From Flavobacteriales bacterium (GTDB lineage Bacteria > Bacteroidota > Bacteroidia > Flavobacteriales_F > PHOS-HE28): 64,000 nucleotides of DNA. Positions 14,824 to 53,467 of this stretch are shown here, piece after piece. Numbering within the stretch: the first letter of the stretch is position 1; every line of letters begins with the position of its first letter. The notes beneath the pieces are model-generated. The model was not told where the DNA came from. It did not search any database and saw only the letters and a list, made by a program, of their open reading frames with translations. The translations under genes and the position numbers were made by a program. The DNA lies in assembly GCA_016699575.1 (NCBI GenBank), contig CP064979.1, forward strand, positions 400,824-464,823, read 5' to 3'.

Positions 14824-14908
14824 GACCGTTCGATGAGAGGCCAACCCGGTAAGTTCGCGTCCCTTAACAAACAAGGCCGTGGCCTTGGCGAAGGCTGTTC
14901 AGCGCAAA

Positions 14909-38056: not shown

Positions 38057-38150
38057 TCACCACAGAGGCACAGAGGACACCGAGAAGAACAAGATGAACA
38101 CCGTTGCTCATCAATCGCATTCCTCCGTGCCCTCTGTGCCTCTGTGGTGA
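38057..38150 (+). promoter_or_regulatory. 20 bp perfect inverted repeat (long hairpin) in the fadB leader, enclosing an 18-codon ORF
   Basis: TCACCACAGAGGCACAGAGG ... CCTCTGTGCCTCTGTGGTGA are exact reverse complements with a 54 nt loop. The loop holds ATG...TGA encoding MNTVAHQSHSSVPSVPLW. Confidence 0.6.
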
Positions 38151-38165
38151 AGCATTCACACACAC

Positions 38166-40544
38166 ATGAGCAAACGAAACATCCGCAAAGTCGCCGTGCT
38201 CGGCAGCGGCGTCATGGGCAGCCGCATTGCCTGCCACTTCGCGAACACCGGCACCGAAGTGCTGCTGCTCGACATTCCAGCCAAGGAAGGTCCGCGCAAC
38301 AAGATCGTGGACGACGCACTCGCCGCCGCGATCAAGAGCAGTCCGGCGCCCCTGTACGATGCACGCTTCGCCAAGCGCATCAGCACCGGCAACTTCGACG
38401 ACGACCTGCCCAAGATCAAGGACTGCGACTGGATCATCGAGGTCGTGATCGAGCGGCTCGACATCAAGCAGCAACTGCTGGAGAAGGTGGAGAAGCACCG
38501 TACACCGGGCACGCTCATCACCACCAACACCAGCGGCATCCCGATCCACGCCATCAGCGCGGGCCGAAGCGACGACTTCCGCAGGCACTTCTGCGGCACG
38601 CACTTCTTCAACCCGCCGCGCTACCTGCCGCTGCTGGAGCTGATCCCCGGTCCGGACACCGACCCCGCGGTGCTCGCCTTCCTGGAGGACTACGGCCAGC
38701 GCATCCTTGGCAAGGTCACGGTGATGGCCAAGGACACGCCCGCCTTCGTGGCCAACCGCATCGGCGTGTTCGGCATCATGGACGTGTTCCACCTCGTCAC
38801 CGACATGGGCCTTACGGTGGAGGAAGTGGACCGCCTCACCGGCCCCGTGATCGGCCACCCGAAGAGCGCCACCTTCCGCACCGCCGACGTGGTGGGCCTC
38901 GACACGCTGGTGAAAGTCGCGCAGGGCGTGAAGGACAACTGCCCGCACGACGAGCGCAACAGCCTCTTCAGCATTCCGGAGTACCTGCAGCAGATGGTGG
39001 AGAAGAACATGCTCGGCAGCAAGACCGGCAAGGGCTTCTTCTTCAAGGACCGCAACTCACCCAAGGGCGAGATCCTCTCCCTCGACCTGAAGACGCTGGA
39101 GTACAAGCCACAGGTGAAGCCCAAGTTCGCCACGCTGGACGCGGCGAAAAAGGTGGATGACCTGCGCGAGCGCCTCAAACTGGTGTACAACGGCACCGAC
39201 AAGGCCGGCGAATTCTACCGCCGTTCGTTCCAGGCGATGTTCGCATACGTGAGCCACCGCATCCCCGAGATCAGCGACGAGCTGTACAAGATCGACGACG
39301 GCATGCGCGCCGGCTTCGGCTGGGAGGCGGGTCCGTTCGAGACCTGGGACGCCATCGGAGTGCAACAAGTGAAAGATGAAATAGGAAAGCTGAAAGCTGA
39401 AAGTGGAAATGCGCTGACCATCGCGCCATGGGTGGATGAGATGCTTGCGGCTGGTCATACTTCGTTCTACAAAGTGGAGCAGGGCCAACGCCTTTACTAC
39501 GATGTCGCGAGCAAGAGCTACAAGCCGGTGCCACGCGCGGAAGGCTTGATCGTTCTCAACGAATTGCCAGAAAGCAGCATCGTGTGGAAGAACAGCGCCG
39601 CCACCGTGCGTCACCTCAGCGATGGCATCCTGAGCGTGAGCTGGACGAGCAAGATGAACACCATCGGCGCGGAGGTGATCCAGGGCCTCAACAAAGCCAT
39701 CGACCTCGCCGAGCAGGGCTACAAAGGCCTGGTGGTCTACAACGACGGCGCCAACTTCAGCGCGGGCGCCAACGTGGGCATGATCTTCATGATGGCCGTG
39801 GAGCAGGAGTACGACGACCTGGAGATGGCCGTGCGCACCTTCCAGAACACCATGATGCGCATGCGCTACAGCAGCATCCCCGTGGTGGCGGCCCCGCACC
39901 AACTGTGCCTGGGCGGCGGCACCGAGCTCTGCCTGCACGCGGACAAGGTGGTGGCGCACGCCGAGACCTACATGGGCCTGGTGGAATTCGGCGTGGGCGT
40001 GATCCCCGGCGGCGGCGGCACCAAGGAATTCGCCCTGCGCCTCGCCGACGAGCTGAAGGAGGGCGACATCCGCATCAACGCCATGCGCGAGCGCTTCCTC
40101 ACCATCGGCCAGGCCAAGGTGGCCACCAGCGGGCACGAGGCTTTCACGTTAGGCTACTTGCGTCGCGGCCAGGACGAGGTCATTGTCAGCCGCGCCCACC
40201 AGCTGGCCTACGCCAAGGCCTGCGCGCTGGAGCTGTGGAACAAGGGCTACACCAAGCCCGCACCGCGTAAGGACATCAAGGTGCTCGGCCAGGAAGGCCT
40301 CGGCATCGTGTACGTGGGCGCCAACAGCATGCTCAGCGGCAACTACATCAGCCAGCACGATGCGCTGATCAGCGAGAAGCTGGGCTATGTGCTATGCGGG
40401 GGTGACCTGAGCGAGGCTACGGAGGTCTCCGAGCAATACCTGCTGGACCTGGAGCGGAAAGCCTTCGTGGAGCTGTGTATGCAGCGGAAGACGCTCGAGA
40501 GACTTCAGTCGATCATTACTACGGGGAAAGTGTTGCGGAATTGA
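38166..40544 (+). CDS. fadB: bifunctional 3-hydroxyacyl-CoA dehydrogenase / enoyl-CoA hydratase (HCDH N-terminal, ECH C-terminal)
   Basis: N-terminal KVAVLGSGVMGSRIA Rossmann motif and HFFNPP. C-terminal crotonase fold VAAPHQLCLGGGTELCLHAD. About 792 aa. Confidence 0.9.
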   Translation: MSKRNIRKVAVLGSGVMGSRIACHFANTGTEVLLLDIPAKEGPRNKIVDDALAAAIKSSPAPLYDARFAKRISTGNFDDDLPKIKDCDWIIEVVIERLDIKQQLLEKVEKHRTPGTLITTNTSGIPIHAISAGRSDDFRRHFCGTHFFNPPRYLPLLELIPGPDTDPAVLAFLEDYGQRILGKVTVMAKDTPAFVANRIGVFGIMDVFHLVTDMGLTVEEVDRLTGPVIGHPKSATFRTADVVGLDTLVKVAQGVKDNCPHDERNSLFSIPEYLQQMVEKNMLGSKTGKGFFFKDRNSPKGEILSLDLKTLEYKPQVKPKFATLDAAKKVDDLRERLKLVYNGTDKAGEFYRRSFQAMFAYVSHRIPEISDELYKIDDGMRAGFGWEAGPFETWDAIGVQQVKDEIGKLKAESGNALTIAPWVDEMLAAGHTSFYKVEQGQRLYYDVASKSYKPVPRAEGLIVLNELPESSIVWKNSAATVRHLSDGILSVSWTSKMNTIGAEVIQGLNKAIDLAEQGYKGLVVYNDGANFSAGANVGMIFMMAVEQEYDDLEMAVRTFQNTMMRMRYSSIPVVAAPHQLCLGGGTELCLHADKVVAHAETYMGLVEFGVGVIPGGGGTKEFALRLADELKEGDIRINAMRERFLTIGQAKVATSGHEAFTLGYLRRGQDEVIVSRAHQLAYAKACALELWNKGYTKPAPRKDIKVLGQEGLGIVYVGANSMLSGNYISQHDALISEKLGYVLCGGDLSEATEVSEQYLLDLERKAFVELCMQRKTLERLQSIITTGKVLRN

Positions 40545-40600
40545 ACCGACAAAACGACGATCCCGTGTCACACGCGTTCAGCTATAAGCTCGCCAAGATG

Positions 40601-41059
40601 AAAGGTGGTCTTGGTCACTATGGTGAGATCACAGTGGTGGTTGAAGCTAGACTTGCGGATGAGCCGACTATTGTAGAGGCATACAGCGGAACAGGATGGG
40701 AAAGGCAAGGATATGCGCACACTATACCGGACAAGGGTTTCGATGATTGGAAATCGGCGATCCGAATGGGCATCGAATATGCTCTTCGTCGCTTGGAGGA
40801 ACAGAGCATCCGCGTTACAGTGAAAGAAGCCACTGGCTTGATCACTGACACGAACGCGACAATACTTGCCTATGCAGCGTCAAGAGCCCTCTTGGAGAAT
40901 CTTCCCAACCTGGAATCTCAGACGGAAAAGGACCGATTCGAGCAGCTTGTTTTCAGCAGTTTCAACTATGAAGACAGCGCCCAATTGGACCTGGAGCAGT
41001 TCCAGTTAATAGGCCAACTCAGGCCGAAGTCACCATATAGGGTTCAGGCAAATGGCTAA
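40601..41059 (+). CDS. hypothetical protein (island gene A)
   Basis: 152 aa from the MKGGLGHYGE Met. Local GC is about 50% against a host figure above 60%. No motif recognised. An alternative start at 40475 would overlap fadB. Confidence 0.4.
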   Translation, partial: KGGLGHYGEITVVVEARLADEPTIVEAYSGTGWERQGYAHTIPDKGFDDWKSAIRMGIEYALRRLEEQSIRVTVKEATGLITDTNATILAYAASRALLENLPNLESQTEKDRFEQLVFSSFNYEDSAQLDLEQFQLIGQLRPKSPYRVQANG

Positions 41060-41086
41060 GCATAGCCAGCAATATCATCTCATCGG

Positions 41087-41235
41087 TTGGGGCGTGCCGG
41101 CTCGCCCTTCGGCTCCGCAGAGCCGCGCTCAGGGTCTCGCCGTCGCGCTTGGAGTTCAGCCCGGGCTCGGACCCGGGCCTACAAGTCCTCGCGCGGATTA
41201 CCGCGCTGTGGGCTTTCCGCTGCAATCGCTCACGC
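41087..41235. repeat. intergenic repeat element, copy A (TTGGGGCGTGCC...hairpin...CGCGGATTACCGCG...GGCTTTCCGCTG)
   Basis: Shares a 12-mer and a roughly 60 nt 3' module with copy B at 46639-46740. The ATTA-loop hairpin shows compensatory changes between the two copies. Confidence 0.55.
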
Positions 41236-41239
41236 ATGA

Positions 41240-41488
41240 GTGCAAGCACGTGAACCTATGATTGACTTCGACCTAAATCGAACATGGGTCTCATTCACAT
41301 GTCCATCGTGTGCCTATATGGATGAAGTTCAGGTCGTGGATGTACGCTCAGAGAAGACCATATTCTGCCACAACTGTAAGTCCTCGATCCGACTCGTCGA
41401 CGGTGATGCTTCCGTGCACACCGGAGTTCGCGACATCAACGACTCCATGACTGACCTATTGAATACGTTCAAAAAGCTCGGACGCTGA
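41240..41488 (+). CDS. small C4 zinc-ribbon protein (island gene B)
   Basis: CPSC...(21 aa)...CHNC. 82 aa. The stop overlaps the next start (ATGA). Confidence 0.45.
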   Translation: MQAREPMIDFDLNRTWVSFTCPSCAYMDEVQVVDVRSEKTIFCHNCKSSIRLVDGDASVHTGVRDINDSMTDLLNTFKKLGR

Positions 41489-42450
41489 TGTACTACAATC
41501 ACAATCTCAGAACCAACCTACAGGAGTGGAAGAATCGCGTTCAGCGCGCTTCAACAAGCAACTTCGGATACCAGATAGACCTGTTGCTGAAGCACATTCA
41601 AGAGGAGCCTGCACTCAATGCGCTCATGGTTGAAGCCGCTCAGCAATTCCCGCATGAGGACGAGCACTTGCAGGAACGAATAAATCTCTATGACTCCAGT
41701 CAGCACATTCCATTCTCTGGACAAGCGGATCGCGCAGCTTTTTCCCAAGCTCTCTTGCATTGGATCATTAGGGAACATGGTGTCGAGTCCGTACCGCATA
41801 TGACCTTATTCATAGGAAGAAAGGATGTCCTCGGAGGAATAGTAGAAGACTGCGTGTCTCCAATTCTGGACTACTTACATGACCGCTTAGACAAGTCTAG
41901 TTCCACGTTGTACCTGCTTGAGAAATACAAGCGTCGGACGGAGTGGTTCATGAAGGACTCTCTCAGAACACGATATCTGTTGGCTGAGAAAGAATACGAG
42001 AAAATCTTCGAGGATGACCTGCGACTATTCCTGTTTGACCAAGGAATCGACTATCCCTTCTCAACCCCTAGTAGTCCTTCTGGCAGAGCTGACGTTGTCG
42101 GCGCTATTGACACCTCGGATCCGCTTGTTGTCGAAATCAAGATTTTCGACCGAAGCAAGAGCTATGGGAAGGATCGTGTACGAAGTGGTCTTGCTCAGGT
42201 CATGAAGTACGTAAATGACTACAACAAGGACTTTGGCTACCTAGTCATCTTCAATGCCGACAACGCTGAATTGCACTTTCAACTCGAAGACATCAGCAAG
42301 GCCTTCCCACCGATGCTTGTCTATAACAACAAGCGATACTTCTTCATAGTGGTCAACATCGGTGAGCATGTTGCAGCTAGCAAAGTCGGCAAGCAAGAGG
42401 TGATTGAACTGTCAACAGATTTCCTGGTATCCAAAGCAGAACTCGCGTGA
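41488..42450 (+). CDS. hypothetical protein with a C-terminal PD-(D/E)xK nuclease-like motif (island gene C)
   Basis: GRADVVGAIDTSDPLVVEIKIFD...GLAQVMKY...GYLVIFN fits a D...(D/E)xK restriction-endonuclease-fold core. The N-terminal roughly 190 aa has no recognisable motif. Low GC. Confidence 0.45.
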   Translation: MYYNHNLRTNLQEWKNRVQRASTSNFGYQIDLLLKHIQEEPALNALMVEAAQQFPHEDEHLQERINLYDSSQHIPFSGQADRAAFSQALLHWIIREHGVESVPHMTLFIGRKDVLGGIVEDCVSPILDYLHDRLDKSSSTLYLLEKYKRRTEWFMKDSLRTRYLLAEKEYEKIFEDDLRLFLFDQGIDYPFSTPSSPSGRADVVGAIDTSDPLVVEIKIFDRSKSYGKDRVRSGLAQVMKYVNDYNKDFGYLVIFNADNAELHFQLEDISKAFPPMLVYNNKRYFFIVVNIGEHVAASKVGKQEVIELSTDFLVSKAELA

Positions 42451-42601
42451 GGGAGAGCAGCGGAAAGCTCGGAGGCCTGTCATCAGGCCGAGGACCTGCC
42501 TGTCCGGCAGGCAGGCTTGCAGCGGATAGCCCGACGGCGCTGCTCTTGTGCGCCGGCACGCCCAACACTTCGACAAGTTCGGTGTGACGACCACCAAGCC
42601 A

Positions 42602-43444
42602 ATGAAAAAGCGCGCGATCACCGTCAAAGGCATCCCCGTCACCGTTGTGGAGCGGAACGAGCAGGACTACATCTCGCTCACCGACATGGTGCAGGGCTTC
42701 GAGGGCGGCAGCGCGCTGATCGAGCAATGGTTGCGCAACAAGGACACGGTGCTCTTCCTGGGTGTGTGGGAGCAGCTGAACAACCCGGCGTTCAATTCCC
42801 TCGAATTCGAGGGAATTGGGAACGCGGCCGGCCGCAACAGTTTCTACCTGTCGGTGAAGAAGTGGATCGACGCCACCGGTGCGATCGGGCTGCACGCGCG
42901 CGCTGGCGGACATGGCGGCACGTATGCGCACAAGGACATCGCCTTCGAGTTCGGTTCGTGGTTGAGCCCAGAGTTCAAGCTGTACCTGATCAAGGAGTTC
43001 CAACGGCTGAAGGAAGCGGAGGCCAGCAACCAGTCGCTGGAATGGAACCTGCAGCGCACTCTGGCCAAGGTCAACTACCGGATCCACACGGATGCCATCA
43101 AGGAGCATTTGATCCCACCGGTGCTCAGCAAGGCGCGCATCAGCGGGGTGTACGCTACCGAAGCCGACCTGCTGAACGTAGCCCTGTTCGGCCTCACCGC
43201 TTCCGAGTGGAAACGGGCCAACCCATCACTTGCCGGCAACATGCGCGACCGCGCCACACTGGAACAACTGGTCGTGCTTTCCAACCTGGAGAGCATCAAC
43301 GCCGTGATGATCCAGCAGGGCCTCGGATCAGCGGAGCGCCTGCAACAACTGAACACGACCGCCATCGGACAGATGAGATCGCTCACCGCAGGTCGCGCAG
43401 CGGACAAGCTGCTGGCGGCCGGCAAGAAGAAACCAAAGAACTAA
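42602..43444 (+). CDS. KilA-N domain protein
   Basis: KRAITVKGIPVTVVERNEQDYISLTDMVQG is a typical KilA-N N-terminal DNA-binding domain. The C-terminal half is of unknown function. Confidence 0.65.
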   Translation: MKKRAITVKGIPVTVVERNEQDYISLTDMVQGFEGGSALIEQWLRNKDTVLFLGVWEQLNNPAFNSLEFEGIGNAAGRNSFYLSVKKWIDATGAIGLHARAGGHGGTYAHKDIAFEFGSWLSPEFKLYLIKEFQRLKEAEASNQSLEWNLQRTLAKVNYRIHTDAIKEHLIPPVLSKARISGVYATEADLLNVALFGLTASEWKRANPSLAGNMRDRATLEQLVVLSNLESINAVMIQQGLGSAERLQQLNTTAIGQMRSLTAGRAADKLLAAGKKKPKN

Positions 43445-43450
43445 GACCCC

Positions 43451-43618
43451 ATGAACGCATACATCATCGCCGGTTTCCGCAGCGCAGTGGGCAAAGCGCC
43501 CTGCCATCGGCAGGCAGGCGCACGCAAATTCCGTTTCACGCGTCCGGATGACCTGGCCGCGCACGTGGTGAACCACCTGGTGGGTTCGGCGCCCCATAAA
43601 CCACACCCAACCACCTGA
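43451..43618 (+). pseudogene. truncated duplicate of the thiolase 5' end (first roughly 45 codons, then a frameshifted tail)
   Basis: ATGAACGCATACAT...GTGGTGAACCACCTGGTGGG is about 90% identical to 45441-45565. It contains a 22 bp insertion and terminates after 55 codons. Confidence 0.7.
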
Positions 43619-43637
43619 CTTTCAGCACGAAACTACA

Positions 43638-43672
43638 TTTGTAACACTTTCGTATACATTTGTGTTACAAAA
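43638..43672. promoter_or_regulatory. AT-rich inverted repeat TTTGTAACAC-N15-GTGTTACAAA upstream of AbiEi (candidate autoregulatory operator)
   Basis: 10 bp perfect inverted repeat seen in the sequence about 70 bp upstream of the antitoxin start. AbiEi antitoxins are known to bind inverted repeats in their own promoters. Confidence 0.45.
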
Positions 43673-43741
43673 CAGGCCCCGATACGCCTTCGCGCTGCCC
43701 TCGCACAGCAACCCACCTAAACACACGCTTCGGCGCACAAC

Positions 43742-44374
43742 GTGAAACGCCCCTCGGTAGAAAAGCTGGTACTGGCGCGCATGGAAGAGCGTGGCCGTGG
43801 CAGCGTGCTCACCCCCAAGGATTTCTGCGACCTGGGTGGGCGCAGCGCGGTGGCCGTGGCCTTGCACCGGCTGGTGAAGAAGGAGGTGGTGCGCAACATC
43901 GGCAACGGCTTGTACTTCTTCCCGGAGCTGGGCGGGATGTTCGGGGAGTCGATAGCGGGTACCTACGAGATCGTCGCCGCCATTGCCAAGCGCGATGGGA
44001 TCACGATACGCGAGACACATGCTTACGCGTCCAACATCACGGGCATAAGCACCCAGGTGCCTACGCGTGTTGCCTTTCAAACCGATGGTCGTTCCCGAAA
44101 GATCCGTTTGAAGCCCATGATACCGGGCGGACGTGCGAATGAGATCATTCTCCGACGCACCAGTTCGCGCTACATGCGGGCGCGCACCGAGGTGGGCTAC
44201 TTGGTGATCCAGGGCCTGCGTGACTACGGTCGAAAGAACATCGGTAAGGAGGAATATGCCGAGCTGCTCAGACGGCTGCCCCCTCACGGAAAAGAGGATC
44301 TGAAAAAGGACCTGGACATCGCCCCGGTCTGGATCGCGGACATCATGCGTCGATTGATCGCTGAAGCACCATGA
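43742..44374 (+). CDS. abiEi: AbiEi-family antitoxin / transcriptional regulator (type IV toxin-antitoxin)
   Basis: N-terminal wHTH-like region, about 200 aa, 4 bp overlap with the downstream nucleotidyltransferase gene. GTG start (alternative ATG at 43781). Confidence 0.65.
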   Translation: MKRPSVEKLVLARMEERGRGSVLTPKDFCDLGGRSAVAVALHRLVKKEVVRNIGNGLYFFPELGGMFGESIAGTYEIVAAIAKRDGITIRETHAYASNITGISTQVPTRVAFQTDGRSRKIRLKPMIPGGRANEIILRRTSSRYMRARTEVGYLVIQGLRDYGRKNIGKEEYAELLRRLPPHGKEDLKKDLDIAPVWIADIMRRLIAEAP

Positions 44375-45444
44375 GCGCGCATCCATTCCTCCATTTACCG
44401 GAAGCACGGCAACGTTCATTGCTTATTCGTGCCAACAATCTACTCCCCCTCGCGATATCCAGTATCGAGAAGGATGTCTACGTCTGCCTCTTTCTGGAGA
44501 AAGTGATGGCACTTCCTGGCATCGGCGAGCATCTCACGTTCAAAGGCGGCACGTCACTCTCCAAGGCGCACAAGATCACGGACCGTTTCTCCGAGGATGT
44601 GGATCTGGTAGTTGATCGCCATGTGCTTGGTCTCGCGGAAGATGGCATCCCCGGCGGACATCATTCTCCGAGGCAACAGAAGGAGCGCGCAAAGAAGATC
44701 GCGAAAGCCTGTCGAACATGGGCTGCAAATACACTCATTCCCGCCTTACGCACTTCCCTCGCAACTGAACTGCGCAATGGCTCATGGAGCCTCGACCTGA
44801 ACGCCGACAGCGATAACCATGAGACAGTGCTCTCATTCGGCTATCCCAAGCTTTTCGTACCGGACGGCGAGTACATCCTGGACCATGTGAAGGTGGACCT
44901 CGTGGCGAAGGCCGATGCTTGGCCAAGCACAACGATACCTGTGTGCGCTTACGTACATGAGCTCTTCACGGAAGAGTTCGGCGATGGTTCATTCCCAGTC
45001 CGCACACTGGAAGCTGAACGCACGTTGATCGAAAAAGCACTGTTGCTTCACGAAGTTCTGGTCCAGCGTCCGGATGGTCCACGTCGTCGATTGGCGCGGC
45101 ACTACTTCGACCTGTACTTCCTCCATCGCGCCGGTGCAACAACAAAAGCCATCGCCCGAGCTGACCTGTATCCTGCTGTCGTTCAACAGCGCAGCATCTA
45201 CTACCGCTATCCCGGAGTGGACTACGATGCGCTATTGACAGAAGGCTTCAGCATCATTCCGCAAGGCGCGGCACGTGCTGCTTGGCATAGCGACTACGAC
45301 GGCATGCAGAGCGATATGTTCTATGGAAACGTGCCAGCCTTCGACGACATCATGACCGCCATGGAACAGTTCCAAGCAACGTTCCGCGAGCATCTTCAAC
45401 AAACGACATCAGCGCCGAGCAGTCGGCAACACGAACACCCATGA
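44371..45444 (+). CDS. abiEii: AbiEii/AbiGii-family nucleotidyltransferase toxin (DUF1814)
   Basis: KGGTSLSKAHKITDRFSEDVDLVV matches the GGT(A/S)L...R.SED(I/V)D pol-beta-like nucleotidyltransferase core of AbiEii. Confidence 0.75.
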   Translation: MSAHPFLHLPEARQRSLLIRANNLLPLAISSIEKDVYVCLFLEKVMALPGIGEHLTFKGGTSLSKAHKITDRFSEDVDLVVDRHVLGLAEDGIPGGHHSPRQQKERAKKIAKACRTWAANTLIPALRTSLATELRNGSWSLDLNADSDNHETVLSFGYPKLFVPDGEYILDHVKVDLVAKADAWPSTTIPVCAYVHELFTEEFGDGSFPVRTLEAERTLIEKALLLHEVLVQRPDGPRRRLARHYFDLYFLHRAGATTKAIARADLYPAVVQQRSIYYRYPGVDYDALLTEGFSIIPQGAARAAWHSDYDGMQSDMFYGNVPAFDDIMTAMEQFQATFREHLQQTTSAPSSRQHEHP

Positions 45445-46616
45445 ACGCATACATAATCTCCGGTTTCCGTTCCGCCGTAGGCAAAGCGCCCCGCGGCAAA
45501 TTCCGTTTCACGCGTCCGGATGACCTGGCCGCGCACGTGGTGAACCACCTGGTGGGCTCGGTGCCCGGGCTGGAGCGCGACCGCATCGACGATGTGATCG
45601 TGGGCAACGCCACGCCCGAGGCCGAGCAGGGCCTGAACATCGGCCGCATGATCAGCCTGATGGGCCTGAACACCGACAAGGTGCCGGGCATGACGGTGAA
45701 CCGCTACTGCAGCAGCGGCAGCGAGACCATCGCCATTGCCGCGGCCAAGATCCACAGCGGGCAGGCCGACGTGATCGTGGCGGGCGGCGTGGAGTGCATG
45801 AGCCCGATCCCCTTCGGCGGCTGGCGCATCGTGCCGAACGCCAAGGTGGGCAAGGCGCAGCCCACGTACTACTGGGGCATGGGCCTCACCGCCGAGGCCG
45901 TGGCGCGCGACTTCAAGGTGAGCCGGGAGGACCAGGACGCCTTCAGCCTGCGCAGCCACGAGAAGGCGCTGGCCGCGATCAGCTCCGGCAAGTTCAAAGA
46001 CGAGATCGTGCCCTACACCGTGGAGCGCGTGTACCTGGACGCGAAGGAGAAGCGCCAAGTGGAGCAATACGTGGTGGACACCGATGAAGGTCCGCGCGCG
46101 AGCACCCTGGAGGCGCTGGCTAAGCTGAAGCCCGTGTTCGACGCGAAGGGCAGCGTGACGGCAGGCAACGCCAGCCAGACGAGCGATGGCGCGGCCTTCG
46201 TGCTGGTAGTGAGCGAGCGCATGCTGAAGCAGCTCAATGTGAAGCCGATCGCGCGCCTGCTCTCCTACCATGTGGCCGGGGTGGAGCCGCGCATCATGGG
46301 CATCGGTCCGGTGGCGGCAGTGCCGAAGGCGCTGGAGAAGGCCGGGCTGAAGCTGAGCGACATCGGGCTGTTCGAGCTGAACGAGGCCTTCGCGAGCCAA
46401 TCGCTGGCGGTGGTGCGCGAGCTGGGCATCGACCCGGAGATCGTGAACGTGAACGGCGGCGCGATCGCGCTGGGGCATCCGTTGGGGTGCACGGGCGCGA
46501 AGCTGAGCGTGCAGTTGTTCAATGAGATGCGGCGGCGGAAGCAGAAGTATGGGGTGGTGACGATGTGCGTGGGGACGGGGCAGGGGGCGGCGAGTGTGTT
46601 TGAGTTGTTGAATTGA
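45441..46616 (+). CDS. fadA: acetyl-CoA C-acyltransferase (thiolase II)
   Basis: NRYCSSGSETIA (active-site Cys), ...GNASQTSDGAA..., and C-terminal NVNGGAIALGHPLGCTGA. Confidence 0.9.
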   Translation: MNAYIISGFRSAVGKAPRGKFRFTRPDDLAAHVVNHLVGSVPGLERDRIDDVIVGNATPEAEQGLNIGRMISLMGLNTDKVPGMTVNRYCSSGSETIAIAAAKIHSGQADVIVAGGVECMSPIPFGGWRIVPNAKVGKAQPTYYWGMGLTAEAVARDFKVSREDQDAFSLRSHEKALAAISSGKFKDEIVPYTVERVYLDAKEKRQVEQYVVDTDEGPRASTLEALAKLKPVFDAKGSVTAGNASQTSDGAAFVLVVSERMLKQLNVKPIARLLSYHVAGVEPRIMGIGPVAAVPKALEKAGLKLSDIGLFELNEAFASQSLAVVRELGIDPEIVNVNGGAIALGHPLGCTGAKLSVQLFNEMRRRKQKYGVVTMCVGTGQGAASVFELLN

Positions 46617-46638
46617 TGGAGCAGAAGCGGGATAGTGT

Positions 46639-46740
46639 TTGGGGCGTGCCCCCGCCTCAAATGCAGGCGGGGTCCGGCTTTCCGCTGTACTCCTCGCACG
46701 GATTACCGTGCTGCGGGGTGCCGCTCCAATCCGTCACGCG
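46639..46740. repeat. intergenic repeat element, copy B, with a terminator-like hairpin
   Basis: TTGGGGCGTGCC + CCCGCCT-CAAATGC-AGGCGGG hairpin + CGCACGGATTACCGTGCTG module, lying between convergent genes. Confidence 0.55.
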
Positions 46741-46766
46741 AATACCTATCCGGAACAACCCGGAGT

Positions 46767-47573
46767 TTACTGCAAATTAGCAGCAGCGTTCATCAATTTC
46801 GCCTGAAGCTTCGAGAAACGGCCAAGTTGTTCAGCGGTAAGATTGCTACCAGCGTTCTGCAACTTCGACTGAAGTTCTGTCGCGTTCTCCATCATCGCTG
46901 GATATTCAGCGATTGCTGAAGCATCACCGTTCTTGGCGGCTTTCGCAAGTTTGATGTAGTCATCAACGTACTGCTCATAGCTCGTCAGAATGTCGTCCCA
47001 ATCTTCATCGCCCGTAAGAGCAATGTCACCACTCGACTCAGAATCGCCGGAAGATGTAATTGGACTTGTGTCCTGCTCTTCCATTGACGATGACAACTTC
47101 ACCTTCTTGGCCTTACCCGGATTCTTTTCCAGTTCGGTATTTCCACTAAGTGAAAATTCCAACCATGCGGTCTCATTTGCTCCGAGTGAAAGAGCCTTCT
47201 CGAATGGCTCATAGCCATACTTCTCCAAGTTCGTAGCCAATGGCAAATCTCCTTCTCCCAACATATCAGCAGCGATGCACCACTGGTACTTCTTCCCAGC
47301 CCCAACGCCACATACCTGTGCATCATTGGCATCGAATGGCAGAGGCTCGTCCGTTCGCTTTATTTCCACTAGGAGCTTGGTGCCGAAGATCTCTTCACTA
47401 ACCTTAAGCACTGCCTTTGTCACGATATAGCTCTCCGACAACGTTCCAGACATTGTTTGCTCGACTTCGAGCGGAAAGTCCCCGGCTTGCTTTTTATCGG
47501 GATCGGAACTTCCTCCACAGGAAACAGCAAGGGCGGAAACAAGAAGGGCGGCGGACGGCAGCAAGAACTTCAT
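46767..47573 (-). CDS. lipoprotein, hypothetical (lower GC)
   Basis: MKFLLPSAALLVSALAVSCGG lipobox. Acidic Ser/Asp/Glu-rich middle. About 50% GC. Confidence 0.5.
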   Translation of the reverse strand: MKFLLPSAALLVSALAVSCGGSSDPDKKQAGDFPLEVEQTMSGTLSESYIVTKAVLKVSEEIFGTKLLVEIKRTDEPLPFDANDAQVCGVGAGKKYQWCIAADMLGEGDLPLATNLEKYGYEPFEKALSLGANETAWLEFSLSGNTELEKNPGKAKKVKLSSSMEEQDTSPITSSGDSESSGDIALTGDEDWDDILTSYEQYVDDYIKLAKAAKNGDASAIAEYPAMMENATELQSKLQNAGSNLTAEQLGRFSKLQAKLMNAAANLQ

Positions 47574-47741
47574 GGATGGATTGTTAACTGGTTCGCACGA
47601 AAATATGGGAAGTCGTTCACACAATCACTACAAGGGCACAGACGTAGCTTTGAGAAGCTTGCAAACCACCAGTGAATCACGGCAATCCATCCGTACGTCG
47701 TCCAAAGCGCGTTGACGAAGAAGCCATCACTCGTTGAGACC

Positions 47742-48650
47742 ATGACCACCCTTTCACGTACCTGTCGCGCTCTGGCCTGCGCATCAATGATCGCTTGTCA
47801 AACGCCCTCGCCGAGTAGCAGCACATCACCCCACGAGATCCACACCGCCGACTACGACCTGATCATCCCCGCCGAGCAGAAAGCCCTGCTGATCCTCTTT
47901 CCCTGCTTCAGTTGCGCCGCGACGGATACACGAGCGGAGTCGCGCATCGCGGACACGGCCGCGGCGAACGGCATCGCGGTGCTGATGCTGAACTTCAACC
48001 GGCACATCCTGATGAGCGAGGCCGAGCAGCAGGAGGTGATCGGCACGATCGCGGGCGCGGTAGCGGCGCACGGCGTGGATGCGTCGAACACGGTCATCGG
48101 CGGCTTCTCCTCCGGCGGCAACGTGAGCGTGCTGCTGGCGAAGGCGCTGCTGCGATCGACCGATCCGCCGGTGCAGCTGAAAGGCGTGTTCGCCGTGGAC
48201 AGTCCGCTGGACCTGGTGCACCTGTACGAATGCTCGCAGCGCGACCTGGCGAAGACCAGCTTCCCCGAATACAAGGACGAGGCGCGCTACCTGATCGCGT
48301 TCCTGGACAGCGCCCTCGGCTCGCCCACGGACAATCTGTCCAACTACGAACGCGCCGCTCCCCTGCTCAACTCGTCCGCGAGCGTGGCGCCGCTGAAGGA
48401 CCAGCCCATCCGCTTCTACACCGAGCCGGATACGGCCTGGTGGCGCACCCACCGCGACGATGTCTACGAAGAGCTGAACGCCTTTGGGTTGAAGCGCATC
48501 CACGATACACTGGTAGCGGTGGGGAATACGCGGGCGGAGTACATCACCACCGAGGGGCGGGGCGTGCAGCATGGGAACAGGCATCCGCACGCGTGGTCGA
48601 TCGTGGATGAGCAGGAGTTGGTGCGGTGGATCGAGGGGTTGGTGGAGTGA
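47742..48650 (+). CDS. alpha/beta hydrolase (esterase/lipase-like) lipoprotein
   Basis: GFSSGG nucleophile elbow (GxSxG) and a dienelactone-hydrolase-like layout. N-terminal lipobox ...ACASMIAC. Confidence 0.55.
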   Translation: MTTLSRTCRALACASMIACQTPSPSSSTSPHEIHTADYDLIIPAEQKALLILFPCFSCAATDTRAESRIADTAAANGIAVLMLNFNRHILMSEAEQQEVIGTIAGAVAAHGVDASNTVIGGFSSGGNVSVLLAKALLRSTDPPVQLKGVFAVDSPLDLVHLYECSQRDLAKTSFPEYKDEARYLIAFLDSALGSPTDNLSNYERAAPLLNSSASVAPLKDQPIRFYTEPDTAWWRTHRDDVYEELNAFGLKRIHDTLVAVGNTRAEYITTEGRGVQHGNRHPHAWSIVDEQELVRWIEGLVE

Positions 48651-48756
48651 GGCGCTCCACCTTTCGCCTTCCTGTTGTATGTTGTGGAATGCCAAGCGAC
48701 GAGGAACTCGTCAACGGCCAAGACCAATCCTTCGCTAAAGCTTCGGCTTGCAAATC

Positions 48757-49611
48757 ATGAGCGCCCTGCTTCCTTCCTCCACCCTCTTTGAACAGCACCA
48801 GATCCGCAGACTCTACGATGAAGCCACAGAGAAGTGGTGGTTCTCGGTGATCGACATCGTCGGAGCCCTGATCGATCAGCCCGACTACCAAGCTGCGCGC
48901 AACTACTGGAAGGTGCTGAAGCACAGGCTGGCCCAAGAGGGAAGTCAACTGGTTACAGATTGTAACCGGTTGAAGTTGCCCGCTGATGATGGCAAGATGC
49001 GGGATACGGATGTGGCCAAAGCCGAAACGCTACTACGACTGGTCCAGTCGGTGCCCAGCCCGAAGGCCGAACCCATCAAACTCTGGCTGGCGAAGGTGGG
49101 GTACGAGCGCATGCAAGAAATGGCCGACCCGAGCTTGGGCCTTGACCGCGCCCGCGAGCTATGGCGCAAGCACGGCCGCAGCGAGAAGTGGATCCAGCAG
49201 CGGATGATGGGCCAGGAGACGCGCAACAAGCTGACGGACTATTGGAAAGAGCACGACATCAAGGAAGGTGAAGAGTTCGCGATCCTCACCAACATCATTC
49301 ACCAGGAATGGAGTGGTGTGACGGTGAAGGACCACAAGGCGATCAAGGGCCTGAAGACCCAGAACCTCCGCGACCACATGACCGAAGCCGAACTGATCTT
49401 CACGGCGCTGGCGGAGATGAGCACCCGGCAGATCGCGGAGACCGAGCAGGCCAAGGGCATGCCGAAGAACAAGGTGGCGGCACGCAAAGGCGGCGGGATC
49501 GCGAAGAAGGCGCGGCTGGAGTTGGAGGAGAAGACCGGAAGGCCGGTGGTGTCGGGGAGCAATTTCTTGCCGCCGAAGAAGAAACAGGTCACAAAAGGCA
49601 AAAGGAAATGA
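48757..49611 (+). CDS. Bro-N domain protein (DNA-damage-inducible protein D-like, phage antirepressor-type N-terminus)
   Basis: LFEQHQIRRLYDEATEKWWFSVIDIVGAL is a Bro-N/DinD-like N-terminal domain. Lys-rich C-terminus. Confidence 0.55.
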   Translation: MSALLPSSTLFEQHQIRRLYDEATEKWWFSVIDIVGALIDQPDYQAARNYWKVLKHRLAQEGSQLVTDCNRLKLPADDGKMRDTDVAKAETLLRLVQSVPSPKAEPIKLWLAKVGYERMQEMADPSLGLDRARELWRKHGRSEKWIQQRMMGQETRNKLTDYWKEHDIKEGEEFAILTNIIHQEWSGVTVKDHKAIKGLKTQNLRDHMTEAELIFTALAEMSTRQIAETEQAKGMPKNKVAARKGGGIAKKARLELEEKTGRPVVSGSNFLPPKKKQVTKGKRK

Positions 49612-50738
49612 AAGGAACCCGCACGGTCATTTGTCAAACCCTCGGAACGCTGCTCCTCCTCTCCTGCAACGGCCAACCCGCGAGCAAGGCACCGGTGCTG
49701 ATCATGAACGATACGGTTAAGATCCCGACCGAATGGTTCCTGAAACTCGACTACCCAGAGCAACTGTGCCACTGGGTGCGCAACATGCACCAGGACAAGA
49801 GCGGCACGCTGTGGTTCGGCACCAACCACTACGGGCTGATCCGATACGCGAACGATACGCTGGAGTACCTCGCTGATAGTGCCGGCATCACCTCTGGTCG
49901 CATCAACGGGATCGTGGAAGGCGCGGACGGCATCCTGTGGGTCGCTACGGTTGGTGAAGGGCTGTTCAATTACGATCCCTCAGCTCGCCATTCCGCACGT
50001 CACGGCTTCAGTCAGTTGACCACGAAGGATGGCCTGTTGCACAACGACATCTGGAGCATGACCATGGGCCGCGATGGCGTGTTGTTGATCGGGACGATGA
50101 ATGGCATATGCACGTTTGACGGTCGCACCTTCACAACGATCGATCTGCCAGCATCCACAGCGGTGGACTCCTTGGTCCAATTATCGCCCACCCGCATCAC
50201 ATGCATCCTGGAGGACAGCCATGGCAAGATCTGGTTCGGGCGAGATGGTGATGGGCTCTTCGTAATCGACCCGAAGGAGACCGGATCGCCCGGAACGTTC
50301 AAGCACTACACCGTTGAGGATGGCCTACCCGACAACAGCGTCTCCGGCCTGATGGAGGACAGCAAGGGTCGGTTGTGGATCGGTACCAACTTCAGTGGCG
50401 TGAGCCTCTTCGATCCTTCCGCCGTAACGGAGAAAGGGAACAACGCGTTCACCAACTTCACGAAGGACGGCGTGATCCAAGGGATCGAAGCGGGTGCGTT
50501 CCACGAAGACCGGTCTGGGCACATCTGGTTCGCCGCGGAGCACCAGGGTGTTTTCCGCTACGATGGGACGAGCTTCACTAACTACGGCCCCAAGGACGGC
50601 TTGAGCTCAGGCGGGATCCTATCCATCATGGAAGACCGGGAAGGTCGTTTCTGGTTCGGTGGTTTCGGTGGGCTCTTCCGGTTCGACCGGAAGACCGAGC
50701 GGTTCACGCCGGTTGGGAAGCAGGGACCGTGGAACTAG
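49608..50738 (+). CDS. lipoprotein made of two-component-regulator propeller (Reg_prop) repeats, with no kinase domain
   Basis: Seven or more repeats of the type G(L/I)W(F/I)GT..G(L/V)..(F/Y)D. Lipobox LLLLSCNG. Stands alone, with no Y_Y_Y/HisKA/HATPase domains. Confidence 0.55.
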   Translation: MKGTRTVICQTLGTLLLLSCNGQPASKAPVLIMNDTVKIPTEWFLKLDYPEQLCHWVRNMHQDKSGTLWFGTNHYGLIRYANDTLEYLADSAGITSGRINGIVEGADGILWVATVGEGLFNYDPSARHSARHGFSQLTTKDGLLHNDIWSMTMGRDGVLLIGTMNGICTFDGRTFTTIDLPASTAVDSLVQLSPTRITCILEDSHGKIWFGRDGDGLFVIDPKETGSPGTFKHYTVEDGLPDNSVSGLMEDSKGRLWIGTNFSGVSLFDPSAVTEKGNNAFTNFTKDGVIQGIEAGAFHEDRSGHIWFAAEHQGVFRYDGTSFTNYGPKDGLSSGGILSIMEDREGRFWFGGFGGLFRFDRKTERFTPVGKQGPWN

Positions 50739-51361
50739 GACGAGGGATCATGAACAACGCACGAACACCCAGCTCCTTGAAGTCGGCGACCAAAGTTCGA
50801 TCCGCCAATGCGAATTCGCGCAAGCGGGAAGGAGCGCACATGCACATACCGTTCGCCCTCGCACAAGGCTCTTCGCAGCAGGACCACTTCAGTTACCTGC
50901 ACTTCACTTCGGGTACCGAACAGCGGGAGACTTTCCCAAGCACGCTCGAATTGCGCGGGCTTCAAACCAGCCGCGATGGTGAGGTACGGGTGCTCGGTCT
51001 CGCGGATGGCATCACGCAAGGCCTCGTTGGCCATCAGCGCCGCAACGATAGGTGTACGCACCTTGGCGATGGCGTCCTTCTGTACCGGGTCGATGTAGAT
51101 GGTGCGCTTGTCGGGGAAGCGGGTGATGCCGTCGTAGTGCAAGGTAAAGCTGCGCTTACCCTTCGAGCCGAGGGCGATGGCTTGGATGATGGCAGATCCG
51201 TGCTCGGCTGGCAGATCGAGGAAGCACAGCGTGATGTGCGGCGGCGTGTTGCGCCCGCTGAAGGAACCGACGCGCTCGTGCAACACGGTGCGCCGGCGGT
51301 CCACTTTGGCTGCAAGCGCCAGGGATGGAAGGATGGTGAGGAGATAGCGGTGTTTCATCAT
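50735..51361 (-). CDS. 2H phosphoesterase superfamily protein (LigT/2'-5' RNA ligase-like), paralog 1
   Basis: Two H-x-(T/S)-x motifs: PPHITLCF and HPYLTIAAG. Confidence 0.65.
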   Translation of the reverse strand: MMKHRYLLTILPSLALAAKVDRRRTVLHERVGSFSGRNTPPHITLCFLDLPAEHGSAIIQAIALGSKGKRSFTLHYDGITRFPDKRTIYIDPVQKDAIAKVRTPIVAALMANEALRDAIRETEHPYLTIAAGLKPAQFERAWESLPLFGTRSEVQVTEVVLLRRALCEGERYVHVRSFPLARIRIGGSNFGRRLQGAGCSCVVHDPSS

Positions 51362-51559
51362 TCCAAAGTTCCATAACGAGTGTGGTCCCGGCCCGCATTG
51401 CCGACCTGAAAGCGCTACGGCACAGCTCAGGCTTCCACCATCCTTGTGCGGGATCCATGGGCGTGCAATGCTTCCTTTGATCCGGCGGCGATCAGGTCCC
51501 TCGCGCTACTTTGTCCGACCGATCCCAAGCCCACGGACCGGCGGATAACCCAGCGCTCT

Positions 51560-52771
51560 ATGGATGCCTATGACGTACTGACCTTCCTCAGCGGGCTGAT
51601 CATCTTCAGCTACCTCTTCGATCTCTTCGCGAAGCGGACGCGCGTACCCTCGGTACTGCTGTTGTTGGCAACAGGCATGGGACTACGGGCGGTGGCGGAT
51701 TACTGGGGCTTTCAAGCGTTCGATGTGAACCGCATTCTGCCGGCACTGGGCAACGTGGGCCTGATCCTCATCGTGTTCGAAGGTGCGTTGGACCTGACCT
51801 ATACACCGTCCAAACGGCCCCTGATCCGCAAGGCGTTCCTGTCCTCGTTGTTCCTTCTGCTCTTGACGACGGCCGGGATCGCGTACCTCCTGTTCTTGCT
51901 CACAGCGGCCCCATTGACAGCCTGCGTGGCCAATGCAGTACCCCTGAGCGTGGTGAGTTCCGCGGTGGCCATTCCATCAGCGCGTGGCTTGCCCGAGCAC
52001 GAACGCGAGTTCGTGGTGTACGAGTCCTCCTTCTCGGACATCCTGGGCATCATCCTGTTCAACTTTTTGGTCTCCAACGAAACGTTCGGTGCCGTGGCCT
52101 TCGGTCATTTGGGCCTCGAAATAGTCGGTGTGCTTGCGTTGAGCGCTGTATTCTCCATCGCCCTGCTCTGGTTGCTCGGCCGCATCACGCACCACGTCAA
52201 GTTCTTCCTGATCCTCGCCATCCTCATCCTGGTGTACGCGGTCGGCAAACAATTCCATCTGTCGTCGTTGGTAGTGATCCTCGCCTTCGGCATGTTCCTC
52301 TCCAACGCGGACCAAATGCCGTTCGACTGGTTCCGGCAACGCTTCCTTTACCCTGGCTTCCACAAGGACCTGGAACAATTCCATTCCCTCTCCAACGAGA
52401 GCGCCTTCCTGATCCGCACCTTCTTCTTCGTGTTGTTCGGCTTCAGCGTGGTGGCCGGTGCGTTGATCGACACCCAGGCAGCTATGCTTTGCGGGGTGTT
52501 GTTATTGGCGATCTATCTCATCCGTCCGCTCTTCATCCGGCTAGCGGTGGGCATGCGCTCCGCAGCGGTGATGTTCATCACCCCGCGCGGGCTCATCAGC
52601 ATCCTGTTGTTCTTCTCGCTACCGGCCTCATTGCGCATACCCGAGGTGGATACCCCGCTGCTTTTCATGGTGGTGCTGGCCACATGCTTGATCATGGCCA
52701 TCGGGTTGATCGCCAGCGGAACGAGCCTCCCGCTCGTGGAGAACGGGAACGGGAACGATCAAGCGAAGTAA
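51560..52771 (+). CDS. monovalent cation:proton antiporter (CPA family)
   Basis: About 11-12 TM helices and a Na_H_Exchanger-like pattern (LLLATGMGLR, ILIVFEGALDL). Confidence 0.7.
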   Translation: MDAYDVLTFLSGLIIFSYLFDLFAKRTRVPSVLLLLATGMGLRAVADYWGFQAFDVNRILPALGNVGLILIVFEGALDLTYTPSKRPLIRKAFLSSLFLLLLTTAGIAYLLFLLTAAPLTACVANAVPLSVVSSAVAIPSARGLPEHEREFVVYESSFSDILGIILFNFLVSNETFGAVAFGHLGLEIVGVLALSAVFSIALLWLLGRITHHVKFFLILAILILVYAVGKQFHLSSLVVILAFGMFLSNADQMPFDWFRQRFLYPGFHKDLEQFHSLSNESAFLIRTFFFVLFGFSVVAGALIDTQAAMLCGVLLLAIYLIRPLFIRLAVGMRSAAVMFITPRGLISILLFFSLPASLRIPEVDTPLLFMVVLATCLIMAIGLIASGTSLPLVENGNGNDQAK

Positions 52772-52789
52772 GAGGCCGACGCGCTGTTC

Positions 52790-53335
52790 TCACCGCAACT
52801 GGAAGCTCCGCACCAGCCCGTACCGCTCGCCGGGCAGCAGCACCCGCTTGAGCAGCACGACCTCGGTCACGTGCTCCGCGCTGGTGTACGTGTGCGGCGC
52901 GAGCAGGTCCCAGGCCGCATCGAACTGGTGGGGTTTCTGTCCGGCTGCGAGGGTCAGGTGCGGGTGATCGGTCTCGCGAACGGCCGCGTGCAAGCGGGGA
53001 TCGGCGGTGAGGGCCGCAACGATGGGCGTGCGCACCACGGCGATGGCCTCCTTCTCCACCGGGTCGATGTAGGTGGTGCGCTTGTCGGGGAAATGGGTAA
53101 TGCCGTGGTAGTGTAGGGTGAAGCCCGGTTGACCGGTCACACCTCTGGAGATGGCATCAATGATGGCGGGCTCATGCGCGGCGGGCAGGTCCAGGAAGCA
53201 GAGGGTGATGTGCGGTGGGTTGTGGCGGCCGTTGAAGGAGCCGATGCGGGCGTGGAGCGCGGTGCGCAGGCGCTCCACCTCGGCGGCCAGGGCCGGGGCG
53301 GGCAGGATGGCGAGGAGGAAGCGGTGGAGCGCCAT
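52790..53335 (-). CDS. 2H phosphoesterase superfamily protein (LigT-like), paralog 2
   Basis: PPHITLCF and HPHLTLAAG. About 65% identical by eye to paralog 1 over the first roughly 170 aa. Confidence 0.65.
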   Translation of the reverse strand: MALHRFLLAILPAPALAAEVERLRTALHARIGSFNGRHNPPHITLCFLDLPAAHEPAIIDAISRGVTGQPGFTLHYHGITHFPDKRTTYIDPVEKEAIAVVRTPIVAALTADPRLHAAVRETDHPHLTLAAGQKPHQFDAAWDLLAPHTYTSAEHVTEVVLLKRVLLPGERYGLVRSFQLR

Positions 53336-53372
53336 GAGCGGTCAAACTTCACCATGACCGCTTGGAAATTTA

Positions 53373-53386
53373 TTATGCGTGCATAA
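53373..53386. promoter_or_regulatory. operator candidate TTATGC-GT-GCATAA upstream of the acyl-CoA dehydrogenase gene
   Basis: Same TATGC-N2-GCATA(AC) dyad as the site at 37573 upstream of MarR. It lies in the divergent promoter region. Confidence 0.45.
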
Positions 53387-53467
53387 CTTTAACCCGAAGC
53401 AACCGTAGAACATCAGGGGCATTTCGATCATCTGATCGTCCGATCCCTGATCAACTGATCGACACCC

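Follow-up and report, generated by a model that had tools for sequence, protein, structure and literature searches.

A layered accessory island between the fadB and thiolase genes of a Flavobacteriales beta-oxidation operon

The interrupted operon and its cargo

The 64-kb stretch analysed here (contig CP064979.1 of a Flavobacteriales bacterium, assembly GCA_016699575.1; hereafter the window, within which all positions are counted) carries an accessory island inside a beta-oxidation operon. Its left core flank is a fadB-type 3-hydroxyacyl-CoA dehydrogenase/enoyl-CoA hydratase gene (38166..40544, + strand, 792 aa; Pfam 3HCDH_N, 3HCDH and ECH_1; NCBIfam FadB-type), and its right core flank is an intact acetyl-CoA C-acyltransferase (thiolase) gene (45441..46616, +, 391 aa; Pfam Thiolase_N/C; NCBIfam). 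From the fadB stop at 40544 to the thiolase start at 45441 the interval measures 4896 nt with exact intergenic edges, in agreement with the ~4.9 kb given by a first-pass annotation of the same DNA. All island genes lie on the + strand, in the order orfA, Zn-ribbon gene, p320, KilA-N gene, thiolase 5' remnant, abiEi and abiEii. The genes are those listed in the first-pass annotation, with two corrections: the start of orfA moves to a GTG at 40565, and a 69-aa open reading frame (ORF) at 41052-41261 is the translation of a repeat element and not a gene.

Base composition divides the island. GC content is 0.475-0.56 across 40.4-42.6 kb against a 64-kb mean of 0.605 (400-nt windows), and among 253 overlapping 1-kb windows none deviates as far as 41251-42250 (GC 0.481, z -4.45; tetranucleotide distance z +4.8). 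GC at third codon positions (GC3) is 0.53-0.57 in orfA (0.53), the Zn-ribbon gene and p320, compared with 0.88 in fadB and 0.91 in thiolase; it is host-like in the KilA-N gene (0.83) and intermediate in abiEi (0.74) and abiEii (0.61). The left part, 40.5-42.5 kb, is clearly foreign by composition, the first-pass annotation having placed the sharpest drop in GC at 40.55-42.45 kb, and the AbiE genes are intermediate. The first-pass annotation also noted the lack of an integrase or transposase. A Pfam scan of all 49 ORFs predicted in the window, those of the island included, detected no domain of an integrase, transposase or other recombinase and no conjugation gene. No tRNA or tmRNA gene lies anywhere in the window, and either is therefore rejected as a target site.

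For comparison we used 80 loci from a FadB scan with one genome per species, all from uncultured or little-studied Bacteroidota and mostly from Flavobacteriales; loci and other contigs are cited by L number where needed. The first island gene, orfA (40565..41059, +, 164 aa, start set by homologues), has no Pfam, PADLOC, NCBIfam or PHROG match and is an orphan restricted to this clade: its five homologues among 5.8 billion proteins all come from it, one of them 100% identical (IPJ76_01940, from a Flavobacteriales metagenome-assembled genome, MAG). L001 has the gene at the same position, with 95% aa identity. The AlphaFold2 model of the protein was unusable (pLDDT 51).

Next come a Zn-ribbon protein gene (41258..41488, +, ~76 aa, two CxxC motifs, possible GTG start at 41240; weak Zn-ribbon matches only) and p320 (41488..42450, +, 320 aa, GC 0.477), whose product has an N-terminal helical domain and a candidate C-terminal PD-(D/E)xK nuclease-like domain with D202, E216 and K218 invariant in a 33-sequence alignment. 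The 457 detectable p320 homologues are mostly from Bacteroidota and at most ~54% identical, apart from one identical 2.3-kb metagenome contig, and the nearest (~50% identity) occur in low-GC Bacteroidota. A 70-76-aa Zn-ribbon gene stands directly upstream of the p320 homologue in 7/7 contexts examined. Neighbours of these pairs elsewhere include MmeI with TIR, a Gabija-like pair with patatin, AbiEii, HEPN, KAP NTPase and Hypoth_Ymh. Neither protein is represented in PADLOC v2, the phage collection held no p320 homologue, and homologues on plasmids are distant only (actinobacterial and Polaromonas). The two genes form a conserved module, as yet uncharacterised, that recurs near defence genes in Bacteroidota at large, and from this association and the predicted fold we read it as a candidate defence or toxin module. 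It offers a lead to an uncharacterised Zn-ribbon/nuclease pair that accompanies defence genes throughout the phylum.

The KilA-N domain protein (42548..43444, +, 298 aa from a GTG at 42548, with ATG 42602 the likely start; Pfam KilA-N 1.8e-19; PHROG 2657) matches PADLOC PDC-S22 over its full length (3.1e-125; residues 19-288 against profile 1-273/281) and has no other PADLOC hit at E <= 0.01. Homologues 90-93% identical in amino acids occur in L016, L145 and L153, and the gene, host-like in composition, is a long-term resident of the clade. The protein is also 50-54% identical over >90% of its length to proteins of Staphylococcus phage EW and of Streptococcus and Mannheimia phages or satellites, a cross-phylum conservation that is unusually high for an accessory gene. 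BstA and single-gene KilA-N abortive-infection proteins (Owen et al. 2021, PMC8585504) share the N-terminal KilA-N domain, the stand-alone length of ~300 aa and an occurrence in defence contexts, phages and satellites, and BstA provides a precedent for a KilA-N protein acting in abortive infection. The protein here has PDC-S22 as its sole PADLOC match, so homology to BstA is not established.

At the right end of the island lies a predicted type IV toxin-antitoxin/abortive-infection pair. It consists of an AbiEi-type antitoxin/regulator (43742..44374, +, 210 aa; Pfam DUF6088 1.6e-29; PADLOC AbiEi 5.6e-44) and an AbiEii nucleotidyltransferase toxin (44371..45444, +, 357 aa; Pfam AbiEii PF08843 2.5e-37, positions 2-237/238; PADLOC AbiEii 2.1e-80). 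The site at 43634..43671 (+), ~70 nt upstream of abiEi, contains two TACATTTGT motifs 21 nt apart, interleaved with a perfect 10-nt inverted repeat, TTTGTAACAC/GTGTTACAAA, and its sequence is conserved in L153. TAnnTTTG, the Bacteroidetes -7 promoter motif, occurs only four times in the 64 kb, two of them here. Scans of the island for sigma-70 promoters and intrinsic terminators gave nothing useful, with models that do not cover Bacteroidetes promoters. AbiE operons are negatively autoregulated through AbiEi binding to inverted repeats in the promoter (PMC3985639, PMC7319586), and by analogy 43634-43671 is a putative AbiE operator/promoter.

The module resembles the AbiE type IV systems of Dy et al. 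(2014, PMC3985639) and Beck et al. (2020, PMC7319586) in its bicistronic order with the antitoxin gene first, the 4-nt overlap of abiEi and abiEii, the DUF1814-type nucleotidyltransferase toxin and the inverted repeat in the promoter region. It differs from them in its AbiEi, which matches Pfam DUF6088 and scores only 17 bits against a cut-off of 150 for the NCBIfam AbiEi equivalog. It differs also in that the AbiEii stop overlaps the thiolase start (ATGA), so that a module of predicted activity is fused to a housekeeping gene.

A clade-specific hotspot

fadB and thiolase flank the region in all loci long enough to include both genes. In the ~60 distant relatives (FadB 64-70% identical) the two genes are 2-150 nt apart in about half and ~450-600 nt apart in most others, the extra space being unannotated and sized for one small gene. 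Thiolase is followed by the acyl-CoA dehydrogenase gene (acad) after 13-70 nt in most relatives, and usually after 15-70 nt in the distant ones. Because the genes lie together in the distant relatives, the compact fadB-thiolase-acad operon is the ancestral state, and the view that the first two are normally adjacent is upheld by these loci and by two close ones.

Among the close relatives (FadB identity of 80% or more) the distance between fadB and thiolase ranges from 11 nt (L017 and L019) up to 6505 nt, with 4896 nt in the window and 214, 573, 693, 724, 1361, 1562, 1665, 1960, 2259, 2367, 2720, 2911, 3308 and 3824 nt in other loci. The two empty loci are nested in separate subclades of a neighbour-joining fadB tree. 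Some cargo genes are common to several loci and others are not, which makes a mosaic; almost all point the same way as the operon and are closely spaced. The cargo includes 23S-rRNA-IVP-type four-helix-bundle genes (L004, L005, L012, L013, L014, L153), a 600-aa AlbA_2/HATPase_c_4 protein, a Schlafen-like ATPase (L006, L008, L010), an RHS-repeat protein (L003, L006), a fused type II restriction enzyme-methyltransferase (L015), KilA-N genes (L016, L145, L153, with fragments in L007 and L009) and further AbiE pairs (L012, L153 and, frameshifted, L001). Judged from the gene list, the defence content of the junction across the clade comprises AbiE, PDC-S22, the type II restriction enzyme-methyltransferase fusion and AlbA_2/HATPase_c_4.

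Two of these inserts deserve separate description. The 23S_rRNA_IVP (PF05635) genes form single-gene inserts at the junction (L004 2360-2934; L005 12382-13076; L013 13359-13921; L153 2862-3557) that carry their own flanking inverted motifs, TGTCCTATG... and ...CATAGGACA, and look like intervening-sequence-type mini-elements lodged between operon genes. In L001 the AbiEii homologue (14066-15258) is split into two overlapping frames and is probably a frameshifted pseudogene; its AbiEi is intact.

In comparison with two relatives, cargo and flanks are incongruent. L001, an activated-sludge MAG, is the closest relative (95% FadB identity); window and L001 are 92% identical in nucleotides from fadB through orfA and 95% identical in thiolase, and share nothing from 41104, inside the first repeat of the island, to 45435, 5 nt before the thiolase ATG. 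The block of KilA-N, remnant and AbiE, including remnant breakpoint and operator, is collinear with L153, whose thiolase is only 86.7% identical.

It might be argued that nothing was inserted and that the intervening genes are ancestral and were lost elsewhere, or that they are a mis-assembly of a metagenome bin. The KilA-N gene, host-like in composition and widespread in the clade, would suit an ancestral origin. Against this, fadB and thiolase are neighbours, or almost neighbours, in ~60 outgroup loci, no part of the window deviates more in composition than 40.5-42.5 kb, and the nearest p320 homologues occur in low-GC Bacteroidota. Three sets of junctions also recur on independent contigs (Zn-ribbon/p320/repeat/KilA-N on L083; KilA-N/remnant/AbiE/thiolase on L153; fadB/orfA on L001), so the arrangement is no chimeric assembly or artefact. 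This explanation is largely refuted and we consider it very improbable.

The fadB/thiolase junction is a clade-specific hotspot, and the region is a core-gene-flanked defence hotspot of a known general kind rather than a new type of mobile element. The first-pass annotation rightly proposed that several modules had accreted at one hotspot, and at least four layers of differing age and origin can be distinguished; close relatives carry other cargo at the same junction, or none. Two things go beyond it: the hotspot is specific to one clade, and there is a second one at the thiolase-acad junction, which varies from 13 nt in L013 to 6852 nt in the window. The operon is split by two islands.

Gene-end remnants, repeats and turnover

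The thiolase 5' remnant (43451..43594, +, 144 nt) comprises codons 1 to ~42 with an 18-nt insertion and forms a direct repeat of 45441-45566. Alignment of 43448-43594 with 45438-45566 gives 147 columns at 80% identity including the insertion (E = 4e-38), and only abiEi and abiEii, a 1.85-kb module, lie between the repeats. The remnant breakpoint in L153 lies within 2-3 nt of that in the window, in the same context. Over thiolase nt 58-129, identity between remnant and live copy is 97.1% in the window genome and 91.7% in L153, whereas orthologues of the two genomes reach only 75-76%; nt 1-57 show no within-genome excess. Because within-genome identity exceeds orthologue identity at nt 58-129, the remnant and the live thiolase undergo gene conversion. 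Comparable scars accompany other inserts: a 53-nt thiolase 5' remnant ahead of the IVP gene in L013, and thiolase 3' remnants downstream of single inserted genes in L001 (16446-16965; 82 nt, 89% identity; 131-aa gene) and in L003 (15200-16138; 151 nt, 71% identity; 245-aa lipoprotein-like ORF). Scars of this type are expected from a single crossover of the Campbell type, or from homology-facilitated illegitimate recombination with its anchor in the gene.

The duplicated thiolase end might instead be the att duplication of a prophage, satellite or genomic island that integrated at the thiolase 5' end and later lost its integrase and most of its genes. Direct repeats around the AbiE module fit this history, as do the KilA-N gene and a Bro-N gene downstream of thiolase, both with phage or satellite-phage homologues. 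Gene-end direct repeats are indeed a feature shared with integrase-borne genomic islands, but the integrase gene expected at the element end is absent here. The duplicated segment encloses just the two AbiE genes with no integrase at either end, and the 49 ORFs of the window include no integrase remnant and no phage structural genes. Relatives hold many small independent cassettes that are not variants of one element, and remnants of both gene ends stand beside unrelated single genes in L001, L003 and L013. A decayed integrative element is, in our judgement, rather improbable.

The variable core of the island is bracketed by two structured repeats in inverted orientation, a feature that the first-pass annotation did not describe. 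R+, the left bracket (41079..41239, +), scores 85.5 bits (E = 8e-16) with a covariance model, CM R1, built from 22 repeat copies. R-, the right bracket (42441..42574, - strand), scores 92 bits (E = 3e-17), with 20.1 bits for Rfam Flavo-1 on the + strand, and belongs to inverted-repeat pair I1. A third copy (46631..46743, +; 97.4 bits, and 32.8 bits for Flavo-1 on the opposite strand) begins 15 nt past the thiolase stop and opens the second variable junction. The repeats are GC-rich, 110-160 nt long, and laid out as TTGGGGCGTGCC, hairpin, GTCGCGCTTTCCGCTGCAA, GTCCTCG, hairpin, CTGTGGGCTTTCCGCTGCAATCGCTCACGCGAA, with termini GGGCGTGCC ... CTCACGCGAA. In the 22-copy alignment 8/13 predicted pairs show compensatory changes and the central hairpins are variable; folding is only modestly better than that of shuffled sequence (z -1.2 to -2.5), so the case for structure rests on covariation and not on energy.

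CM R1 has 28 strong matches in 418 kb of sequence from the clade, every one of them either between fadB and thiolase or shortly past the thiolase gene; the distant loci, 1.04 Mb in which the operons are intact, gave no match. The usual order is fadB, R(+), variable cargo, R(-), optional KilA-N or other genes, thiolase and R(+). Homology among loci stops at the inner repeat ends, at 41235 for R+, and resumes at 42438-42444 for R- (L016, L013, L009), and the p320 stop codon (42450 being its last base, 42448-42450) lies inside the terminal bases of R-. Elsewhere in Bacteroidota the picture is broader. A metagenome scan with a 26-nt core returned at least 120 stretches, most of them, among the matches listed, away from fadB and thiolase, and many of them on low-GC contigs that carry intergenic copies every few kb; a repeat specific to the fadB-thiolase locus is rejected on these grounds. 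The idea that the repeats travel with the Zn-ribbon/p320 module is likewise rejected, the module occurring elsewhere without them.

With the Flavo-1 RNA motif (RF01705; Weinberg et al. 2010, PMC2864571) the repeats share two AGCGGAAAG-type boxes around a variable hairpin and a restriction to Bacteroidota. The window copies differ in being GC-rich, ~35-85 nt longer and equipped with extra hairpin modules, and in their link to an insertion hotspot. Two of them score 32.8 and 20.1 bits, under the Rfam gathering score of 42, and R+ gave no hit at E <= 10; of the related metagenome copies, one attains 42.9 bits and the others 32-36. We call the window repeats Flavo-1-like, short of certified RF01705 membership. 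Flavo-1 has no known function; in Flavobacterium psychrophilum its hits lie sense or antisense to transcripts, with no consistent gene association (PMC9723704). We treat the repeat as a dispersed element of the repetitive extragenic palindrome or miniature inverted-repeat transposable element kind that marks the hotspot in this clade and may supply homology for recombination; a more active role is possible. An association of Flavo-1-like repeats with variable DNA may help to explain a motif that has been without a function since 2010.

A more active role would make the repeats attC-like or transposon-end-like sites for a recombinase encoded elsewhere, which places promoterless, co-oriented cassettes in operon junctions. 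In every subclade they border the most variable segment, and homology breaks at their inner ends. Compensatory changes and variable central hairpins mark them as structured, loci with an intact operon lack them, and the cargo is co-oriented and tightly packed, with stop and start signals inside the repeat ends. Integron cassette arrays and clusters of attC sites lacking integrases (CALINs) similarly combine co-oriented, packed, mostly promoterless genes with imperfect palindromic structured repeats of ~60-150 nt. Unlike these, however, the window has no IntI integrase (no Phage_integrase-type domain), the 64 kb hold no other recombinase either, and the aligned repeat copies have no R/L box or attC-type GTTRRRY ends. 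Copies are found in either orientation and for the most part stand alone at unrelated intergenic sites, several module borders here have none, and the modules between the brackets occur without the repeat in other genomes. We give such a cassette platform little credence.

A still bolder conjecture joins two claims: that Flavo-1-like repeats are working borders of a Bacteroidota cassette-capture system without a recombinase in cis and, separately, that the Zn-ribbon and PD-(D/E)xK proteins form a new, widespread two-gene anti-phage system of Bacteroidota. We think it unlikely. If it were true, an inverted repeat pair at an operon junction would be a landing pad on which promoterless, co-oriented and largely defence-related genes are swapped, and an orphan RNA motif would gain a function at the DNA level.

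Some cargo frames begin within a repeat. In L003 (12780-13787) and L009 (12594-13376) they run from the repeat into a signal peptide/lipobox (...AVGFPLQSLTRNA|ALVLALCLIAHVASAQ and ...TRNAT|GIVLVLLIAAFVTGC), and beyond the repeat they contain no in-frame ATG. Their start codon would then lie in the repeat, or else the genes were captured without their 5' ends.

The findings at the locus are probably best explained by a layered accessory island in a clade-specific recombination hotspot of the ancestral fadB-thiolase-acad operon, turned over by homologous recombination of the host. We favour host homologous recombination because of the incongruence between cargo and flanks, the gene-end scars and the ongoing conversion between scar and live gene; incongruence and conversion support exchange through the flanks indirectly. 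Most of the cargo would be of toxin or abortive-infection type: an AbiE pair with its own autoregulated promoter, KilA-N/PDC-S22 and Zn-ribbon/p320, with orfA as an orphan. The low-GC Zn-ribbon/p320 pair would be a recent acquisition. As no mobility enzyme is encoded on the island, its contents would be exchanged by the recombination machinery of the host, with the conserved flanking genes as homology anchors, so that entire interiors could be swapped as alleles after uptake of DNA from relatives. The two inverted Flavo-1-like repeats around the most variable segment may act as a second homology anchor.

The AbiE module would have entered through a crossover that fell within the first ~130 nt of thiolase, be it a single crossover of the Campbell type or an event of homology-facilitated illegitimate recombination, leaving the old 5' end as the remnant. 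The remnant points to recombination without an island-encoded enzyme, which the first-pass annotation, leaving the mechanism of mobility unclear, did not propose. The thiolase direct repeats should also allow the module to loop out, and its persistence may owe to toxin-antitoxin addiction countering such loss, by analogy with an AbiE system reported to stabilise an integrative and conjugative element (PMC11062541).

Several points weigh against this reading. Transfer, excision and transformation are steps that we infer rather than observe directly. The fadB tree may be distorted by recombination itself, and part of the mosaic could have arisen as lineages lost different genes from a large ancestral island. 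The boundaries of KilA-N, remnant and AbiE have no repeat, so not all module borders carry one. The repeats stand singly and in either orientation at hundreds of unrelated Bacteroidota sites and may simply colonise new intergenic DNA with no part in recombination. As to the cargo, KilA-N proteins can be plain regulators, as the PHROG label has it, and PDC-S22 is a computational defence candidate for which we know of no published phenotype.

Among known systems, the core defence hotspots cDHS1 and cDHS2 of Pseudomonas aeruginosa (Johnson et al. 2023, PMC10250203) also have fixed core flanks and variable, lower-GC, defence-rich content that is not obviously part of a mobile element, and turnover by recombination in the conserved flanks has been proposed for them. 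The Flavobacteriales hotspot differs from them in its place inside a three-gene metabolic operon, at both intergenic junctions, and in its size (0-6.5 kb against a median of 26 kb). It also differs in that the cargo between fadB and thiolase runs in the direction of the operon, in part with translational coupling to it, that its border lacks a tRNA or tmRNA gene, and that its variable core is bracketed by a structured repeat.

The minimal mobile elements of Neisseria often have small dispersed repeats nearby. As we read the concept, those elements are whole-gene cassettes that vary by strain between the same two conserved genes, carry no mobility genes and are exchanged through flanking homology (Saunders and Snyder 2002, cited in PMC1538595), all of which recalls the present case. 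Here, in contrast, the repeats are Flavo-1-like and not Correia or dRS3, and converting gene-end remnants are an additional feature; these uncultured Flavobacteriales are not known to be naturally competent.

The locus has the conserved flanks, the variable and sometimes empty sites, the defence cargo and the freedom from mobility genes of a hotspot. What is unusual is the use of both junctions of a compact metabolic operon, the fusion of abiEii stop and thiolase start, the repeat bracket and the converting remnant. An integrase-free defence hotspot can sit within a conserved metabolic operon, and, with the thiolase start fused to a toxin-antitoxin module, the flux of phage-defence genes becomes physically linked to the regulation of beta-oxidation. 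Converting gene-end remnants offer a checkable scar of hotspot growth without mobile-element enzymes.

The second junction and the upstream region

The second variable region (46617-53467) lies between thiolase and the acyl-CoA dehydrogenase gene (53468-55258). It contains a low-GC DUF6591 gene on the minus strand (46767-47624, GC3 0.52), a gene for a 312-aa protein, a Bro-N protein gene (48748-49611), a Reg_prop protein gene, two LigT-like 2'-5' RNA ligase genes and a Na+/H+ exchanger gene. As listed, the Bro-N ORF and the Reg_prop ORF (49308-50738) overlap by ~300 nt, and the real start of the Reg_prop gene is probably further downstream than 49308.

On the other side of the operon, four relatives have a tmRNA gene at a distance of 4-8 kb upstream of fadB (L001 3819-4218; L006 1843-2241; L013 6332-6728; L016 5404-5801). 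Because the window has neither tRNA nor tmRNA gene, synteny upstream of fadB is broken in the window genome. Immediately ahead of fadB, at 38057-38150, there is a 28-nt inverted repeat (93% complementary, 38-nt loop), 16 nt upstream of the fadB start. Rfam gave nothing for it but sub-threshold hits to microRNA families, which we take as chance, and the repeat could be an operator or an upstream terminator.

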